Shown piece after piece: positions 296 to 14,463 of a DNA stretch of 14,776 nt. Under the pieces are notes generated by a model. It was given only the letters and a program-made list of their open reading frames with translations, was not told the origin of the DNA and ran no database searches. A program made the translations under genes and the position numbers. The stretch lies in UHGV virus genome UHGV-0099190; one strand, given 5' to 3'. The DNA comes from a virus. The first letter of the stretch is position 1. Every line of letters begins with the position of its first letter.

Positions 296-428
296 TTTTT
301 GGGACTCCTGGCTGATTAAGTATGTCGATAAGGCGTTTCCATCCGTCACGTAATTTACGGGTGATTCGTTCAAGTAAAGATTCGGAAGGGCAGCCAGCAA
401 CAGGCCACCCTGCAATGGCATATTGCAT
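264..428 (-). CDS. cIII: cIII (FtsH/HflB protease inhibitor, 54 aa)
   Basis: Hand translation from ATG 428 gives [54 protein letters not shown] with stop at 264-266; AAGGAG RBS 6 nt upstream; matches lambda cIII length and sequence from memory. Missed by the ORF track (under 60 aa). Confidence 0.85.
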   Translation of the reverse strand: MQYAIAGWPVAGCPSESLLERITRKLRDGWKRLIDILNQPGVPKNGSNTYGYPD

Positions 429-457
429 GGTGTGCTCCTTATTTATACATAACGAAA

Positions 458-1064: not shown

Positions 1065-1514
1065 TTACTTAACCAATGATGCTGCATATTCGATAAGGTA
1101 AAGCTTTGGAGCCAGCAAAATTTTTAACCATGTCATATTGGTTACTGCACTAATAATAAAAATCCCCCACAGAGCCAAAACTCCAACTAATGGCATGATA
1201 AGAAGATTAATATCACCTTTGCTATCCCAAACCATTGTCGGCCTGTATTTGGGATTTCCCTTCTCCCATGAATATCCTTCATCACCGATTTTACCTGTCT
1301 CAACTCTTCGGCACTGCTTCTTCATAAACCAGAAAACCAGTGGGATTGTTAGAATGGCTATTAATGTTTTAATCAGACTGTCAACCATATTCCATAGCAG
1401 CAACTGATGAACAACATCAGGAATCTGCGCCTGGCTGAATGAAACAGCCGTGTCTATTCCATTGCTGGTTTTTTGCAGTAGTTCTACGAGAATCTTGTTT
1501 GCTTGTTCTTCCAT
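1065..1514 (-). CDS. Hypothetical inner-membrane protein (149 aa, two predicted TM helices); moron-like insertion, possible superinfection-exclusion function
   Basis: ORF with AAGGGG RBS; two hydrophobic segments (LIKTLIAILTIPLVFWFM and INLLIMPLVGVLALWGIFIISAV); AT-rich relative to neighbours; own downstream terminator; sits in the ral-ea10 gap, which I recall as short and gene-free in lambda. Confidence 0.65.
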   Translation of the reverse strand: MEEQANKILVELLQKTSNGIDTAVSFSQAQIPDVVHQLLLWNMVDSLIKTLIAILTIPLVFWFMKKQCRRVETGKIGDEGYSWEKGNPKYRPTMVWDSKGDINLLIMPLVGVLALWGIFIISAVTNMTWLKILLAPKLYLIEYAASLVK

Positions 1515-1902: not shown

Positions 1903-2175
1903 TCACCTTGCTGTCAGTTGTTTTGATTTCCTGTAGCCTGCCGCGTAAAGAGCTACATTTGGAAGACAAGTTGAGCCTTCATATTTTCTGGTCAACGTTG
2001 TCAGTGTTATTACTTCTGCTCTCATTGCTGGTTTGCGCTTGCATTGCAAGACCACTCGAGAGGGGGTTGGTCTGTGTAGCTTGTCGGAGCTAATCGCCTC
2101 CTGACTTTGCAGGTTTGCGCGACGAACTCTACGACGAGAAGCTGAGGTGCCTTTAAATTCTGTTTTTCTGGACAT
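1903..2175 (-). CDS. N: N-like transcription antitermination protein (90 aa), P22 gp24-type
   Basis: Start ATG 2175 with GGGAGG RBS; N-terminal arginine-rich motif GTSASRRRVRRAN; C-terminus LPNVALYAAGYRKSKQLTAR closely resembles the P22 gene 24 C-terminus (LPGVALYAAGHRKSKQITAR) from memory; nutL lies upstream. The 118-aa track ORF (start 2259) has no RBS. Confidence 0.75.
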   Translation of the reverse strand: MSRKTEFKGTSASRRRVRRANLQSQEAISSDKLHRPTPSRVVLQCKRKPAMRAEVITLTTLTRKYEGSTCLPNVALYAAGYRKSKQLTAR

Positions 2176-2273
2176 AGATTCCTCCCGAATAAACTTTGGT
2201 GATGCAATCTCGAAGCTCCTCCTGAGACGGTTGCTTCGGCATTGCATCCCACAGCTCATGTGGTTGGGTGATC

Positions 2274-2394: not shown

Positions 2395-2550
2395 TACGAT
2401 TTGTTCTAAAATAGGGTGATTTTTTATAACACTTTGTATTTAATAGTGTTGTTTTTTAGCGTGGGTGTATCGCCTCGGCGATGTAAGGAGAGATCAGAAT
2501 TGCGTGGTTTAGTGAGTTGTATCTATTTATTTTTCAATAAATACATTTGG
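2395..2550. promoter_or_regulatory. oL-type operator region with several inverted repeats
   Basis: Inverted repeats AACACT-N11-AGTGTT (2428-2450), ATCGCC-TC-GGCGAT (2469-2482), TATTTATT-TTTC-AATAAATA (2524-2543); TGTAT/ATACA half-site motifs shared with the oR region. Confidence 0.3.
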
Positions 2551-2582
2551 TTATGTGTCTTTAGGTGGGGGGTGAGGCAAAG

Positions 2583-2609
2583 AAAACCCGGCGCTGAGGC
2601 CGGGTTTTT
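2583..2609. terminator. Bidirectional intrinsic terminator (tIMM-like) closing the cI/orf180/orf258 operon
   Basis: Stem CCCGGC/GCCGGG (2587-2592 / 2599-2604) with 6-nt loop, flanked by AAAA upstream and TTTTT downstream; begins directly after the TAG stop of orf258 (2610-2612). Confidence 0.6.
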
Positions 2610-3386
2610 CTAGGCTACCAGAGACTCAATCCAAGAGTCTCTGGTATGGAATGGCAACACTCGTGCGGTATCATTAAATAGTAATGATAGTTGCTGTAGC
2701 TCAGGTGTTAACCCATCGCTGTCAACTATTACAAATCTATTGTTTATGTCAGGAACGACCTGACTTAAGTCAACAATCTTCCCAACTGTTGAGTGGGCAG
2801 TATTCCATCCCTTACTGCTGGCAAGGCTTACCGTAAACCCGCGTTTTGGTGGTATTAGTCGAGACTCATTCCTTAGCGTTAACGGAACAGTAATGTTATG
2901 CCCACTAATACCTTTCACTTTTTCCTTTAAGACTAGTCGCTTCCCAAGCCCTGCTGATTTTAAGTAACTGATTACACATTTTTCGAACTTATCGTCTTTG
3001 ACCTCAGCATACCAATCAGCAGTTTGGGCGGATGCAAGAATCCCACCACGAATAACATTTGCAGTTACCTGTCCAACGGACGACTCATCTGCCCACGCAG
3101 ATATCTCTCCAGAGTCATTTAATGAAATTCCTTGCGAAGCGAGTGATGACCTGATCAGATCAATTTTCTTTTTAGTCAGGTGGATGCCGCGTGATTCAAT
3201 ATTCATCAATGTATCGCAGTAGTCTGTAACCCTATACTGACCACTCATCTCTTGAACGAATACACTTATCTGCTCACAATCATCGTAGTATGTGAATGGA
3301 CTAATAACGCGCAGCAACGTGTCGCTCATTGGGTGGCATTCAAACCCGAGCTTAGATATGACTGTTGAACACGTTACATTTCCCAT
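2610..3386 (-). CDS. Hypothetical protein (258 aa), second gene of the cI-linked cassette in the rexB position; function unknown
   Basis: ORF whose ATG (3384-3386) overlaps the end of the upstream 180-aa ORF by 13 nt; AT-rich; no TM segments; no family I can recognise. An alternative start at 3329 (MSDTLL) is possible. Confidence 0.65.
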   Translation of the reverse strand: MGNVTCSTVISKLGFECHPMSDTLLRVISPFTYYDDCEQISVFVQEMSGQYRVTDYCDTLMNIESRGIHLTKKKIDLIRSSLASQGISLNDSGEISAWADESSVGQVTANVIRGGILASAQTADWYAEVKDDKFEKCVISYLKSAGLGKRLVLKEKVKGISGHNITVPLTLRNESRLIPPKRGFTVSLASSKGWNTAHSTVGKIVDLSQVVPDINNRFVIVDSDGLTPELQQLSLLFNDTARVLPFHTRDSWIESLVA

Positions 3387-3916
3387 GATAACTGACCTGA
3401 TTTATCTTGATTAGGTAAAGGTGGGCTGCCTTCATATATGATATTAAGCGCCTCGCAAAAATAATTCCAGTAGCCAAAAAAATCATCTGGCTTGATGTTC
3501 GTTTCAAGCTTAAGTGCAATTTCTTCCCCAGCTGATTCGAAGTACATGTGATAGTGAGGACCTCGAGCCACCTCAACAAAATCTGGATGGTTCACTATAG
3601 ATTTATTACGGTGTGGCTTGTTATCCGCAGGGTACGGATCAAGCGCGTAAATGCGCCTGTCATGAAGAAACATCACAAATGAAATCTTCACTATATCCAC
3701 CCCTTCAACGATAGGAGGACGCCAGTGAAGCATAAATCTTATGCCTGTGATTGGGTTGCCAATTTCATCAAAAGCTTTGAGATCCAATTTAAACCAGATT
3801 GGGGTTCGTCCCTCACTTCCGGTCCATGTAACTCCGCTAAAAGTTACTTTTTTCAAGCGAGTAATAGCTTGGTCAACCTCTTTCTGGGTAGGCTTAAAGT
3901 CGCCTTTTTTAGCCAC
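3374..3916 (-). CDS. Hypothetical protein (180 aa), first gene of the cI-linked cassette in the rexA position; function unknown
   Basis: ORF starting at GTG 3916 (in-frame TGA 9 nt upstream; GGTGA SD-like motif 9 nt upstream), 46 nt downstream of the cI stop on the same strand; no recognisable family; no TM segments. Confidence 0.6.
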   Translation of the reverse strand: MAKKGDFKPTQKEVDQAITRLKKVTFSGVTWTGSEGRTPIWFKLDLKAFDEIGNPITGIRFMLHWRPPIVEGVDIVKISFVMFLHDRRIYALDPYPADNKPHRNKSIVNHPDFVEVARGPHYHMYFESAGEEIALKLETNIKPDDFFGYWNYFCEALNIIYEGSPPLPNQDKSGQLSWEM

Positions 3917-3962
3917 TGATTCGTATCACCATGAAAGTTATTGTTAATACCTGTGCTTCTTG

Positions 3963-4622
3963 TCACCCAAACGTCTCTTCAGGCCACTGACTAGCGATAA
4001 CTTTCCCCACAACGGAACAACTCTCATTGCATGGGATCATTGGGTATTGTGGGTTTAGTGGCTGTAGAAACACCTGACCGCTATCCCTGATCAGTTTCTT
4101 GAAGGTAAATTCATCACCACCAAGTCTGGCTATGCAGAAATCGCCGGGCTCAACAGCTTGCTCAGGGTCAACCAGAATTAACATCCCGTCAGGAAAACTG
4201 GGTTTGGAACCTGTTGGTGCGGTCATTGAGTTACCTTCAACCTCAAGCCAGAATGCAGAGTCACTGGCTTTTTTGGTTGTGCTTACCAATCTCTCCGCAT
4301 CGCCTTTGGTAAAGGTTCTGAGTTCTGGAGAGAACATCCCAGCCTGAACATGAGAAAATACAGGGTACTCATATTGTTTTTTAACTGGGGCCGATGAGTA
4401 TTCGCCAACAGGTGAAAATGTCCCGTCGTGGTTGAATGATATGTTATCAATACCAAGGTATTTAAACACCACACCAATATCACTAAGAGATGGATGACGA
4501 GATCCGCGCAACCAGTGTCCAATCCCACCCTGCGTCATACCTAGCTCTTCGGCTAACTTCTCTTGAGTTATGCCGAGCTCTTTCATTCTGGATCTAGCCA
4601 GTTCATACCATTTCATTTTCAT
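3963..4622 (-). CDS. cI: CI-type prophage repressor (219 aa): XRE-family HTH N-terminal domain plus LexA/S24-like autocleavage C-terminal domain
   Basis: Start ATG 4622 (MKMKWYEL) with AAGGA RBS; [24 protein letters not shown]; C-terminal domain from [14 protein letters not shown] to the end, including the Ala-Gly cleavage site, GNSM serine and FTFKKL lysine, matches lambda cI from memory. The track start at 4664 has no RBS. Confidence 0.85.
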
Positions 4623-4732
4623 GTCCTTATTATTACGCTCTGTACTGGAACCATCCATGCACAATGTGTATTTTTGCTTGTATTTTGAAAATACATATTG
4701 TATTTTTTATTCGAGGTTACTATGGAGGGCAT
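4623..4732. promoter_or_regulatory. oR/pR/pRM divergent control region with a perfect 17-bp palindromic operator candidate
   Basis: Perfect palindrome TGTATTTTGAAAATACA at 4679-4695; further TGTAT half-sites at 4667 and 4699 and inverted repeat ATACA-TAT-TGTAT at 4691-4703; lies between divergent cI and cro starts. Confidence 0.5.
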
Positions 4733-7376: not shown

Positions 7377-7817
7377 ATGAAAAAACTAACCTTTGAAATT
7401 CGATCTCCAGCACATCAGCAAAACGCTATTCACGCAGTACAGCAAATCCTTCCAGACCCAACCAAACCAATCGTAGTAACCATTCAGGAACGCAACCGCA
7501 GCTTAGACCAAAACAGGAAGCTATGGGCCTGCTTAGGTGACGTCTCTCGTCAGGTTGAATGGCATGGTCGCTGGCTGGATGCAGAAAGCTGGAAGTGTGT
7601 GTTTACCGCAGCATTAAAGCAGCAGGATGTTGTTCCTAACCTTGCCGGGAATGGCTTTGTGGTAATAGGCCAGTCAACCAGCAGGATGCGTGTAGGCGAA
7701 TTTGCGGAGCTATTAGAGCTTATACAGGCATTCGGTACAGAGCGTGGCGTTAAGTGGTCAGACGAAGCGAGACTGGCTCTGGAGTGGAAAGCGAGATGGG
7801 GAGATCGGGCTGCATGA
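7377..7817 (+). CDS. ninB: NinB (Orf-family recombination mediator, 146 aa)
   Basis: Start at ATG 7377 (MKKLTFEIRSPAHQQNAIHAV...) with GGGGGAGAGGGAAG RBS; matches lambda NinB from memory. The track ORF starts 6 codons earlier. Confidence 0.9.
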   Translation: MKKLTFEIRSPAHQQNAIHAVQQILPDPTKPIVVTIQERNRSLDQNRKLWACLGDVSRQVEWHGRWLDAESWKCVFTAALKQQDVVPNLAGNGFVVIGQSTSRMRVGEFAELLELIQAFGTERGVKWSDEARLALEWKARWGDRAA

Positions 7818-8341
7818 CTATCAAATCAAATACGCCAGCACACGACAAGGACTGCTGGCAAACGCCGCTTTGGCTTTTTGATGCACTGGATATTGAGTTT
7901 GGATTCTGGCTGGATTCGGCAGCGAGCGACAAAAATGCTCTGTGTGCTCACTGGCTAACTGAGGCCGACGACGCGCTCAATTCTGAGTGGGTAAGCCACG
8001 GTGCAATCTGGAATAACCCACCGTACAGCAATATCAGACCGTGGGTGGAAAAAGCCGCTGAGCAGTGCATACAACAGCGACAGACGGTAGTTATGCTTGT
8101 GCCAGAGGATATGTCAGTCGGATGGTTCAGCAAGGCTCTGGAGAGTGTCGACGAAGTTCGTATTATCACTGATGGACGGATTAATTTTATCGAACCATCG
8201 ACAGGGCTGGAGAAGAAGGGAAACAGCAAAGGCTCCATGCTGCTGATTTGGCGACCGTTCATCAGTCCTCGACGGATGTTTACTACCGTATCCAAAGCGG
8301 CATTGATGGCGATCGGGCAGGGCGTCAGGAGGGCGGCATGA
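7814..8341 (+). CDS. Phage Dam-type DNA N6-adenine methyltransferase (175 aa)
   Basis: Start ATG 7814 overlaps the ninB stop (ATGA); contains the N6-adenine MTase motif IV NPPY ([13 protein letters not shown]); size typical of small phage Dam-family enzymes. Confidence 0.8.
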
Positions 8342-9564: not shown

Positions 9565-9649
9565 AGTCAGAGATAACAATCAACTAATACTGTTTTGTTG
9601 ATTTTTGCTTGTAATTGGCGTTCTGGTCTGATTTTTGTGGAGTAAGTTG

Positions 9650-10033
9650 ATGCGTGATATTCAGATGGTTCTTGAGCGTTGGGGAGCGTGGGCGGCTAAT
9701 AATCATGAAGATGTGACCTGGTCGTCCATTGCCGCCGGTTTTAAGGGATTAATTCCTTCAAAAGTAAAATCTCGCCCGCAATGTTGTGACGATGACGCGA
9801 TGATCATTTGCGGGTGCATGGCCCGTCTGAAAAAGAACAACAGCGATTTGCACGATTTATTAGTAGATTATTATGTAGTCGGTATGACATTCATGTCACT
9901 GGCAGGTAAGCATTGCTGCTCTGATGGTTATATCGGGAAAAGGTTACAGAAGGCTGAGGGCATAATTGAAGGGATGTTAATGGCATTAGATATCCGGTTA
10001 GAGATGGATATCGTTGTTAATAACTCTAATTAA
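9650..10033 (+). CDS. Q: Late-gene antiterminator Q (127 aa), phage 82 / QuuD type
   Basis: Start ATG 9650 ([24 protein letters not shown]...); 127 aa, matching the DLP12 QuuD / Q82 family in length and recalled N-terminus; followed by the pR'/tR' region. Confidence 0.85.
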
Positions 10034-10222: not shown

Positions 10223-11305
10223 TTAGAACTGATACACCAGACCTACAGCGACGATGTCGTCGGTATCAATACCAGCTGTTTTGGTAAACTTACTATCGTC
10301 AATTAAGTTGATTTTGTAATCAACAAAAGTGGACATGTTTTTATTAAAGTAGTAAGTAGCACCGACATCGACATACTTGACTAAGTCTCGGTCACCATGA
10401 ACACCAAGGTCTTTACCTTTTGACTGAAGGTAAGCAACAGATGGTCGCAGACCGAAGTCAAACTGATATTGTGCTACTGCTTCAAAGTTTTGTGCTTTGT
10501 TTGCAATATGGTTATTACCAAAAACGGTCATATTCTGAGTTTCAGAATATGTGGTAGCCAGATAGATATTGTTCGCATCATATTTCAGGCCTGCAGCCCA
10601 TACTTCCGCATTTTTGCCGGAGGCATTGAATTTGCTCTTACCATAGGCGACCTGACCGTCAGTGCGATCTGATTTAGCATAGGTTGCACCCACGCCGAAT
10701 CCTTCATACTCATAAGTAGTGGAGAAACCGAAACCATCACCATTGGCTTCAGTTACGTCAGTGCGGTCATTTTTACCCTGATACTGAGCAGCAAAGTTCA
10801 GGCCATCGACCAGACCAAAGAAGTCGTTGTTACGATAGGTTGCAACACCAGTTGCACGTTTAGTCATGAACACGTCGGTTTGAGTCCAAGTGTCACCACC
10901 GAATTCTGGCAGGACGTCAGTCCACGCACCGATGTCGTATGCTACACCGTAGTTACGGCCGTAATCGATGGAGCCGTAGTCACCGAATTTCAGGCCAGCG
11001 AAGGCAAGACGGGTTTTATCTTTGGAGGAACCTTGAGATTCAGCGCGGTTGCCTTTGAATTCATATTCCCACTGACCGAAACCAGTCAGTTGATCGTTGA
11101 TTTGGGTTTCACCTTTGAAGCCAAGACGGGCATAAGTAGTATCACCATCATCTGCATCATTAGAGGAGAAGTAGTGCTTAGCATTAACTTTCCCGTACAG
11201 ATCCAGCTTGTTACTGTCTTTATTATAAATTTCAGCTGCCTGAGCAGACATCGCCATCAGTACTGATGCAGCTACAGCAGAAATTGCCACTGTTAATTTT
11301 TTCAT
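10223..11305 (-). CDS. nmpC: Outer-membrane general porin, OmpC/OmpF family (NmpC/Lc-like), with signal peptide; intact
   Basis: Start ATG 11305 ([23 protein letters not shown] / AEIYNKD...) with AAGGG RBS; C-terminal VGLVYQF beta-barrel signature; between Q and S as in DLP12 and phage PA-2; antisense to the late operon. Confidence 0.9.
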
Positions 11306-11732
11306 CGTGAGCCCTTTTTTTGAACTATTATTAAAAAATGATGTCACTGCGCGATAAATATTCATCTAATCAATGTGATTATTTCAAGATGTAAGTTTTG
11401 GTTTCTCGTTTGATTTGTGAAGTAGATCTCTATTTTTATCTGAACTTTTTTCTATCGAATCCTATTCATGGCTCTTGGCTGAATAAAAATAAATCTATTA
11501 GTCAATTTGTATTAACGGCTGTTATTTATAAGTGCTCTATAATTTGAAGGTTCAATTTAAACCGGCTAAAAATAACACTGGAAATTATTTGTTGGTTATT
11601 TGTTGAGATTTGCTTATGTATTTGTAGTGGTGTTTTCAATACTCGGTAGCATTCTCGCAAATATCATTTAGTGGTTTACGTACGTAAAAAATTGGTTATG
11701 CTGTTAAGAGTGGTTACTTCGTCACACAGCTT

Positions 11733-13112: not shown

Positions 13113-13263
13113 TACCGGTATTTCACCGCGCACCGCAGCGCACAATAAACACCGAACCTGACCCTTTGGAATGGGCCTTTGAGGATACCAGTTAGTGCTG
13201 GCGAGCCTCGGTGGGCTGGTTTCCTGTGCGGCAAAGGTTCATTTCAAAGAAGCAGGCAACGCC

Positions 13264-13812
13264 ATGAATGAATTAATTGCGAATCATGACTTCGACTTTC
13301 GCCAGTTAGTTACCGCAGCAGAAGGTCAACCGGTAACTGACACCTTCCAGATTGCCAGGGCATTTGGTAAACGCCATCAGCATGTGATTAGGGCTATTAA
13401 ATGTTTGAGATGTTCTGAGGAATTCTCGACAACCCATTTTTGGGCCGTCGAGAAAATCAATGACTTAGGGATTTTTGACAAGAAACAGATTTACTACCGC
13501 ATGGACTTTAGTGGCTTCGTTATGCTGGTTATGGGATTTAACGGAGCAAAAGCCGATGCTGTTAAAGAAGCCTATATCAATGCGTTTAACTGGATGTCAG
13601 CAGAACTCCGTAAGTACAGCGAAAGTTATGAAGCAGAACGTAACGCCGTAATGCTGGAGTACATGAAAGAGAAGGATGTCGCCAGCATGTCAGTCCGTCT
13701 GCTCAATCGCTGGGGGAGAACGAAAAAACCTCAATTGCTTGCAAAGCTGGAACGTCTGGAGAGACAGGGACAGTTTTTATTACCGGGATTCGATAAAGGT
13801 ATTCAAGCCTGA
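13264..13812 (+). CDS. Rha/AntA-like phage regulatory protein (about 182 aa)
   Basis: ORF with probable start at ATG 13264 (MNELIANHDFDFRQLV...); N-terminal region (FQIARAFGKRHQHVIRAI) resembles the Rha/AntA antirepressor-type domain. The track start is an upstream GTG. Confidence 0.5.
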   Translation: MNELIANHDFDFRQLVTAAEGQPVTDTFQIARAFGKRHQHVIRAIKCLRCSEEFSTTHFWAVEKINDLGIFDKKQIYYRMDFSGFVMLVMGFNGAKADAVKEAYINAFNWMSAELRKYSESYEAERNAVMLEYMKEKDVASMSVRLLNRWGRTKKPQLLAKLERLERQGQFLLPGFDKGIQA

Positions 13813-13995: not shown

Positions 13996-14406
13996 TTAGT
14001 GCGGAAATATTTGTGTAGTGTTCTGAATGTTCTCAGTAAAGAGTAATGAATTATCAAAGGTATAGTAATACCTTTTGTTTTCGTGGATATTTGTAATCCA
14101 TCTGAAAACCCCTGCTGTAGCAAGATTTTTCCTGTATTCGTAAAATGATAACTCTCCTGATTTGAATCCTTTTAAGGTGGCTTCTATAAGGCATTTATTT
14201 TTTGAAAATCTTACATTTACAACCTTACCCTGTCCTTTTATTAAAACCGTATTATCGTTTTCAAGAACAAGATGAATATTCTCTGTGGCTAAATAGTAAA
14301 TGTAATGTGAGACATTGTGACGTTTTAGTTCAGAATAAAACCAGTGATAGTTTAAATTATTTCGCACTTTATCGAATATTTGTTTAAAAATGGCAACCTG
14401 AGCCAT
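13996..14406 (-). CDS. DUF1398-family protein (YbcV-like, 136 aa)
   Basis: Start ATG 14406 ([14 protein letters not shown]...) with GGAAGG RBS; very AT-rich; size, sequence recollection and position after the lysis genes resemble DLP12 ybcV. Confidence 0.55.
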
Positions 14407-14463
14407 TGTAGTACCTTCCATGTGATATGAGGGTACCTAGTCTGCACGATTATCTAAATTGCT

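Follow-up and report, generated by a model that had tools for sequence, protein, structure and literature searches.

The 14,776-nt stretch of the UHGV virus genome UHGV-0099190 analyzed here (the window) corresponds to the immunity and early region of a lambda-like, lambdoid E. coli prophage. Directly behind its cI-type repressor gene we found two overlapping genes, here called A and B, which form a two-gene accessory module ("moron") in the presumed lysogenic cI operon and occupy the position held by rexA and rexB in lambda. On a modest balance of probability, we interpret A-B as an anti-phage defense of some kind, with exclusion or abortive infection as its most likely form.

The cassette and the rexA-rexB slot

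The cassette and its immediate flanks contain the following features, where HTH denotes a helix-turn-helix domain and ORF an open reading frame:

3374-3916 (-): gene A, 180 aa, GTG start at 3916
2610-3386 (-): gene B, 258 aa, ATG start at 3386
3374-3386 (-): overlap of the A stop and the B start, 13 nt, sequence ...TCATGGGAAATGTAA
3963-4664 (-): cI-type repressor, HTH plus S24 self-cleaving peptidase
3917-3962 (-): spacer between cI and A, 46 nt, with a Shine-Dalgarno sequence GGTGA at 3926-3930
2583-2609 (-): intrinsic terminator hairpin, directly 3′ of the B stop codon
2366-2394 (-): pL-like promoter, TTGACC-17-TACTAT, at the left edge of the immunity region
1903-2259 (-): N-type antiterminator ORF with a putative start codon, opening the early-left operon

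An initial annotation of the window had described the coordinates of both ORFs, their 13-nt overlap and the 46-nt gap to cI on the same strand, and all of these were reproduced. The overlap implies translational coupling of A and B, and ranges from 4 to 13 nt among homologues. The repressor matches Pfam Peptidase_S24 (E 1.3e-28) and HTH_3 (E 2.1e-10), is 100% identical in amino acid sequence to cI of phage ev017, probably starts at the ATG at 4658, and is presumed to head the lysogenic operon. No hairpin or terminator-like site was predicted in the 46-nt spacer between cI and A, and read-through of the cI transcript into A-B would therefore be expected; a gap of 45-46 nt was seen again in 14 related loci. 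At the other end of the cassette, the hairpin (CCCGGC-ctcagc-GCCGGG, flanked by an A-run and TTTTCTTT) folds at -22.5 kcal/mol with a z-score of -3.8, and 0 of 200 shuffled sequences were as stable. This agrees with the terminator originally proposed at this position, next to which the pL-like promoter and the N-type ORF lie. A simple terminator scan overlooked the hairpin because its A/T extension consumes the T-run. The regions homologous to the N-type ORF carry the N annotation in ev017, 2G7b and an Stx1 phage.

Comparison of A-B with homologues of 74-91% amino acid identity gave 0.05-0.19 non-synonymous but 0.59-0.83 synonymous differences per site, which indicates that A and B are real genes under purifying selection. 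The guanine-plus-cytosine (GC) content of the cassette is 42.9%, compared with 46.0% for cI, 45.0% for the window and 41.1% for its left arm. The visible AT-richness attributed to the cassette at first thus amounts to 2-3 points, with the left arm lower still, and is too small to be used as a sign of recent acquisition. An Rfam scan found no RNA family in or adjoining the cassette.

The extent of the replacement could be delimited by comparison with lambda. Window positions 3963-4373 share 93.7% DNA identity with the part of lambda cI that encodes its C-terminal half, positions 2488-2611 match the lambda stretch bounded by oL and the rexB end at 88.7% identity, and the core of the terminator is base-for-base the lambda sequence directly past rexB. 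In 10 prophage loci from IMG/VR, A-B stands behind a repressor that is identical to lambda cI at 234 of 237 residues. In locus L018, lambda homology spans cro and cI, ends exactly at the cI stop codon and restarts in the final 7 nt of rexB, meaning that the cassette substitutes exactly for rexA, rexB and the upstream spacer. A sister variant of the cassette shows the same replacement of rexAB in locus L070, within a background that is otherwise 97-99% lambda-like. When phages having the window's own cI were considered, the joints fell at 2609/3963 (2G7b) and 2606/3965 (Stx1 phage), and homology to phages with different slot contents stops at 2606-2609. These comparisons bear out the assignment of the pair to the rexA/rexB slot next to a lambda-like cI C-terminal region: the cassette shares the strand of cI and is bounded by this gene and by the terminator upstream of pL. 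From the alignments, the terminator after B is part of the conserved backbone, as the counterpart of the lambda terminator past rexB.

The contents of the slot are variable behind the same or a lambda-type cI:

lambda: rexAB
mEp234 and HK106: hicAB and one further gene
HK97: gp48/gp49
2G7b: a 283-aa gene
Stx1 phage: a 173-aa ORF
A-B pair: two variants, 40% (A) and 51% (B) identical to each other

PADLOC gave zero matches for the 2G7b 283-aa gene, the Stx1 ORF b63, HK97 gp48/49 and the mEp234 genes.

Lambda RexAB and A-B share the slot, the orientation, the two-gene composition and presumably a position on the cI transcript, whereas their products differ. Searches of A and B against RexA (279 aa) and RexB with blastp and family hidden Markov models (HMMs) returned only negative-score, chance-level matches. 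RexB is a polytopic membrane protein with several strongly hydrophobic segments (Kyte-Doolittle 2.39), while the maximum 19-residue Kyte-Doolittle scores are 1.22 for A and 0.79 for B, with no 19-residue segment above 1.6 and no transmembrane-like segment in either; the view that both products are soluble and unlike RexA and RexB therefore stands. Furthermore, B is chaperone-like and nuclease-like and A has an orphan fold, unlike the lambda proteins.

In the O104:H4 prophage (L003 7354-8067 compared with window 3963-4664), homology comprises the cassette and only the C-terminal cleavage/dimerization half of cI, reaching window position 4373, and the DNA-binding half of the repressor differs from that of the window. 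The pattern suggests that recombination within the repressor coding sequence switched the immunity specificity and left the cassette in place.

Domains of A and B and their relation to known systems

B is composed of two domains. Its N-terminal part (residues ~1-125) is a DUF1828 domain with a secretion-chaperone/YbjN-like fold, matching Pfam DUF1828 (PF08861) over residues 30-112 with 40.9 bits (cut-off 22). Its C-terminal part (~133-257) is a DUF1829-type PD-(D/E)xK-like domain, in which the alpha-beta-beta-beta-alpha-beta core of that fold is present and which resembles PD-(D/E)xK nucleases (Can2 10.2, NgoMIV 9.2, PspGI 9.1, BstEII, NucC 7.3). DUF1829 (PF08862, clan PDDEXK; threshold 22.2 bits) was detected in two remote B homologues, at 23.4 bits in Burkholderia and 29.1 bits in Helicobacter, and an HHpred match of the sister-variant B to DUF1829, clan PDDEXK, at 98.8% is given in the DefensePredictor supplement. 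B was assigned to PHROG 1960. Searches of PDB sequences with B gave chance chaperonin matches only and those with the B-family profile gave nothing, and NCBIfam had no match for the cassette proteins. When eight diverse B sequences were aligned, invariance was confined to C6, C17, D36, D55, D58, G93, E94 and I95 of the N-terminal half and to G159, S161, H163 and D206 of the C-terminal half. No invariant acidic residue was found at the positions of the canonical D...(D/E)xK on strands 2 and 3. The initial annotation had recognized no known family in either protein, which the DUF1828 score of B and the weak likeness of A to DUF6978 contradict. Its hint at a nuclease was based on a motif in B (ADESS...YAEVK) that is not conserved, and what survives of it is the PD-(D/E)xK-like fold elsewhere in the protein, at ~133-257.

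A was assigned to PHROG 2017 and scores 23.6 bits against Pfam DUF6978 (PF22398), below the threshold of 29.6 bits and over the C-terminal 57 of 133 profile positions; among 28 relatives, four match DUF6978 at E <= 0.001. The A family is weakly DUF6978-like and seems to lie just outside that Pfam family. Structure prediction gave a confident model without a solved structural relative, so that A is predicted to have an orphan fold, and a PDB sequence search with the single protein found nothing. Residues K22, R88, H121, H123 and F153 are invariant, and the C-terminal ...SGQLSWEM tail is conserved yet disordered. Both H121 and H123 were present without exception in 28 diverse A homologues, and an A-family profile aligned with human FHIT (E 0.043) in such a way that these two residues coincide with the catalytic H96 and H98. 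Of the HIT motif H-x-H-x-H-x-x, solely H121-x-H123 is invariant in A, with HPHLH in a Pseudomonas homologue. The fold search did not recover the HIT alpha+beta fold for A, and the FHIT alignment was retained as a lead only.

These features allow the effector to be placed in either protein. Tentatively, B may be the nuclease effector, partnered or regulated by A. The roles may also be reversed, with A acting as a histidine-dependent, possibly HIT-like nucleotide hydrolase or transferase and B as an inactive sensor or scaffold. We consider this unlikely; it would account for the invariance of H121/H123 in the 28 homologues and the HPHLH triad of the Pseudomonas homologue, for the extension of the FHIT alignment over an upstream G-x-x-x-x-G-Q-x-V motif, and for the lack of canonical nuclease residues in B.

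The defense interpretation draws on earlier computational screens, two of which had flagged this family in print; the initial claim of novelty is weakened to that extent. When the locus was checked with PADLOC, A and B weakly matched the two halves of a single candidate system, PDC-M24. The matches of the window proteins were with PDC-M24A for A (E 3.8e-4, 18.8 bits, residues 98-160) and with PDC-M24B for B (E 6.4e-7, residues 5-112 only), both being weak and partial. PDC-M24B was matched end to end by sister and remote B proteins (E 4.7e-10 for the ev017-type to 4.5e-13), and 6 of the 28 A-family members matched any PDC-M24A model. A-B and PDC-M24 agree in gene order, the genes being adjacent, co-oriented and arranged A then B, and are similar in size (profiles of 146-148 and 255-256 positions). 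PDC systems are candidates proposed on the ground that they sit inside known defense systems (type I restriction, Hma, BREX or DISARM; Payne et al., 2024, preprint). In this PDC-M24 differs from A-B, as it was defined in restriction, BREX, DISARM or Hma loci rather than in prophage immunity regions.

The second screen, DefensePredictor (Science, 2026), lists WP_000968518.1 and WP_001062368.1 in its Tables S5 and S10 as "Predicted novel defense gene", with log-odds of 5.6/6.3 for the 250-aa DUF1828 protein and 4.9/5.4 for its 185-aa partner. An A-B pair of the ev017 type has the same lengths and the same overlapping arrangement and is located in the rexA/rexB slot, its proteins sharing 40-51% identity with those of the window. 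In addition, the cluster representative of WP_001062368.1 is WP_001074607.1, which is the window-type A as annotated in O104:H4. In the searchable literature on DUF1828, DUF6978, PDC-M24 and PhiR phages we found no characterization of these proteins, prior validation being possible, and for DUF1829 only the DefensePredictor paper was found.

DUF1829 is also a domain of DS-6B, the partner protein of the HipAD system, for which binding to DNA and to the kinase of that system has been predicted. HipAD thus resembles B in that DUF1829 is part of a validated defense system and B homologues have this domain above threshold. It differs in that DUF1829 is there fused to DUF3037 and partnered with a HipA kinase, whereas in B it is fused to DUF1828 and the partner is the orphan-fold protein A. 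The nucleases that B resembles in fold also differ from it: the defense effector nucleases Can2/Card1 and NucC and restriction enzymes of the NgoMIV/PspGI type contrast with B, which is without a conserved D...(D/E)xK and has the invariant S161, H163 and D206, and whose sensor domain is chaperone/YbjN-like and not of the CARF type. In location, the closest parallels are BstA, remAIN and GiPD474, published defenses sited in prophage immunity regions, which together with mEp234 HicAB share with A-B a place beside a prophage repressor and presumed expression in lysogens. By their published descriptions, remAIN comprises an ATPase and two small proteins and GiPD474 consists of one protein with an ATPase domain, architectures different from that of A-B, and identity of A-B with remAIN (Gifsy-1 STM14_3218-3220) was ruled out for this reason.

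The likeness to HipAD also bears on whether A-B is instead a toxin-antitoxin or addiction module that stabilizes the prophage and has no antiviral role. An overlapping gene pair whose first gene is limited by a weak start codon would be compatible with such a module, a bona fide HicAB is found in the same slot of mEp234, and the DUF1829 protein of HipAD partners a HipA-like toxin. Nevertheless, A and B are large for a type II toxin-antitoxin pair, and Pfam detected a DNA-binding antitoxin domain in neither of them. We therefore regard this explanation as very unlikely; it would also hardly be exclusive, as many prophage toxin-antitoxin pairs prove to be defense systems.

Linkage to repressor genes, distribution and candidate function

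To assess how constant the arrangement is, we relied on an IMG/VR scan (141 relatives found, 80 loci kept) and on a scan of a genome collection, which yielded seven full loci, from Pantoea, two Providencia, Yersinia, Xenorhabdus, Thorsellia and Izhakiella. In all 80 of the IMG/VR loci kept, A immediately precedes B and the two genes overlap. In each of the seven species genomes, the end of A meets the start of B and an ORF for an HTH plus S24-type repressor is found just upstream on the same strand. The same-strand ORFs upstream of A in the IMG/VR loci fall into 25 clusters (at least 80% identity), and eight of the nine cluster representatives tested have HTH and Peptidase_S24 domains; among the remaining representatives, one has HTH only and one was without a match. 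The pair is thus found behind at least 25 different repressor types. The arrangement extends to remote B homologues (21-29% identity) from a Pseudomonas phage, Burkholderia phage phi644-2 and a Helicobacter prophage, all of which have a small gene upstream of B with a 4-nt overlap. In a six-sequence search with the A-family HMM, these upstream genes scored E 6e-11 (Pseudomonas), 6e-6 (Burkholderia) and 2e-3 (Helicobacter). Upstream of A-B, the phages of Pseudomonas and Helicobacter have a CI-like repressor; for phi644-2, Pfam matched nothing in gp49, which lies upstream, and the region is marked only by a CII-like activator.

The two proteins also diverge in parallel, A always more than B (identities to relatives, A/B: 88/91, 78/83, 65/74 and 40/51%). 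The start codon of A is non-ATG in 80 of 80 IMG/VR loci (L016-L095; 57 GTG and 23 TTG), in both variants and in several upstream contexts. This universal GTG/TTG start suggests that there may be selection for low translation of A, and it would fit tight dosage control.

Constant association with a repressor could alternatively mean that A-B modulates the lysis-lysogeny switch or induction of its own phage. Lambda RexA, from the same slot, has been reported to influence the CI/Cro lysis-lysogeny switch, and A-B would act in a manner similar to this second role of RexA. The steady position of the pair beside the repressor gene in the same operon, with 25 repressor types in IMG/VR and also in phages of gamma-, beta- and epsilon-proteobacteria, is in keeping with such a function, as is the predicted DNA binding of the DUF1829-bearing HipAD partner. 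However, the cassette serves unrelated repressor and operator sequences, which disfavors specific recognition, the same cI functions with very different slot contents, and the PDC-M24 relatives were defined outside prophages, in restriction or BREX-type systems. This explanation consequently appears to us quite unlikely.

Among 5,426 complete E. coli genomes, the window type is present in 61 and the sister type in 241, always as a single chromosomal copy, and about 5.6% of these genomes carry the family. The carriers include the O104:H4 outbreak lineage (window type) as well as Nissle 1917 and the E. coli type strain (sister type). The presence of the pair in pathogenic lineages such as O104:H4, along with other morons of that kind in the window (e.g., a porin gene), raises the possibility that A and B are lysogenic-conversion genes acting on host physiology or virulence and unconnected with phages. 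We find this highly improbable, since the pair is just as present in Nissle 1917, a commensal/probiotic strain, and in the type strain of E. coli, occurs in phages of unrelated hosts, and encodes cytoplasmic proteins with a nuclease-like fold.

Some individual loci showed further features. In eight loci, a 113-aa DUF3024 gene lies between the repressor and A (L005 4052-4393, L006 4053-4394, L010 4044-4385 and L062 2552-2893; also the IMG/VR loci L063, L064, L066 and L067). PADLOC matched this gene end to end with PDC-S43, a single-gene candidate (E 4.4e-37), indicating that the slot is able to stack two defense candidates. Together with the HicAB pair of mEp234 and HK106, it also shows that the slot tends to collect cargo of this kind. 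In Pseudomonas phage VB_PaD_phPA-G (L013), the gene-A homologue with the full HPHLH triad is an unannotated ORF at 2420-3004, and a 216-aa protein with a weak match to PADLOC PDC-S48 (E 3e-6) is encoded between it and the CI-like repressor. A 518-nt contig labeled Actinomadura rugatobispora (L011) contains an A-B junction that shares 47-57% identity with the enterobacterial pair; contamination is the probable explanation, rather than a true actinomycete locus.

Returning to anti-phage defense as the favored function, a possible mechanism can be outlined. From the layout, the maintenance and establishment promoters would drive a single cI-A-B transcript that stops at the lambda-type terminator, and lysogens would contain both A and B at a low level. 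The two proteins may form a complex in which the conserved, disordered C-terminal tail of A is held by the chaperone-like DUF1828 domain of B. An infecting phage would perturb this complex, releasing an activity that blocks phage development. That activity could be exerted by the PD-(D/E)xK-like domain of B on nucleic acid, through a non-canonical site comprising S161, H163 and D206, or else by A through its invariant H121-x-H123 site.

Several considerations weigh against a defensive role. The PADLOC matches of the window proteins A and B are weak and partial, the PDC-M24 and DefensePredictor entries are computational predictions only, and WP_000968518.1 and WP_001062368.1 are absent from DefensePredictor Tables S6-S8, which contain the tested and validated systems. 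The defense phenotype is likewise predicted from computation, and co-transcription of cI with A-B from layout. Because RexA may act on the lysis-lysogeny switch, position alone is no proof of defense. At the level of the proteins, the nuclease-like domain of B is without conserved acidic residues on strands 2 and 3 and may be catalytically dead, a Pfam hmmscan gave no match for the C-terminal half of the window B and did not detect DUF1829 there, and A offers no recognizable fold and, among 42 clusters, no domain fusion that would hint at an activity.

A more far-reaching version of the defense interpretation, which strikes us as speculative and unlikely, would make A-B a new two-component immune module in which A has an unseen fold and a histidine active site, and in which attachment to repressor operons is functional and goes beyond a hotspot effect. 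The pair might then, for example, guard lysogeny, responding to superinfection or to a disturbance of the repressor by triggering a non-canonical nuclease. The suggestion of functional attachment comes from the 80 of 80 kept IMG/VR loci, from the range of about 25 repressor types and from the occurrence in gamma-, beta- and epsilon-proteobacterial phages.

Lysogen-expressed accessory defenses adjoining the repressor are already known. What is new here is the exact replacement of rexAB, the strict linkage to repressors in distant phages, the predicted orphan fold of A and the atypical architecture of B. If the defense interpretation is correct, a mechanistically unexplored system joins the prophage defenses expressed with the repressor, with possible effects on phage therapy, phage typing and prophage competition in medically relevant strains. 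The one-for-one replacement of rexAB is also a clean natural experiment on the purpose of the cI-to-pL slot, and A-B is a well-defined and easily testable defense candidate.

Other genes of the window

The remainder of the window contains additional accessory genes:

10223-11365 (-): complete Gram-negative porin gene (Porin_1, E 1e-151)
7754-8341 (+): Dam-type N6-adenine methyltransferase gene in the nin region (Pfam Dam, E 9e-65)
13996-14421 (-): DUF1398 gene in a 31% GC stretch after the lysis cassette
1065-1514 (-): 149-aa ORF with hydrophobic segments

Placed between the gene for the Q antiterminator (9635-10033) and those for lysis but encoded on the opposite strand, the porin gene has very AT-rich flanks of 31-34% GC and looks like a classic lysogenic-conversion moron. 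The Dam-type methyltransferase could protect the phage genome from restriction. The DUF1398 gene, located beside a Rha-family regulator (13195-13812), is another AT-rich accessory gene. The 149-aa ORF, which had no Pfam or PADLOC match, is flanked by ral (1574-1774) on one side and a DUF2528 gene (501-869) on the other. Relative to ev017, the window is without the sieB-type gene between ral and N, where positions 1869-1903 correspond to ~720 nt. Finally, the sole Rfam family in the window is Lambda_thermo, the cIII thermoregulator, at 383-441 (-) with 88.5 bits.

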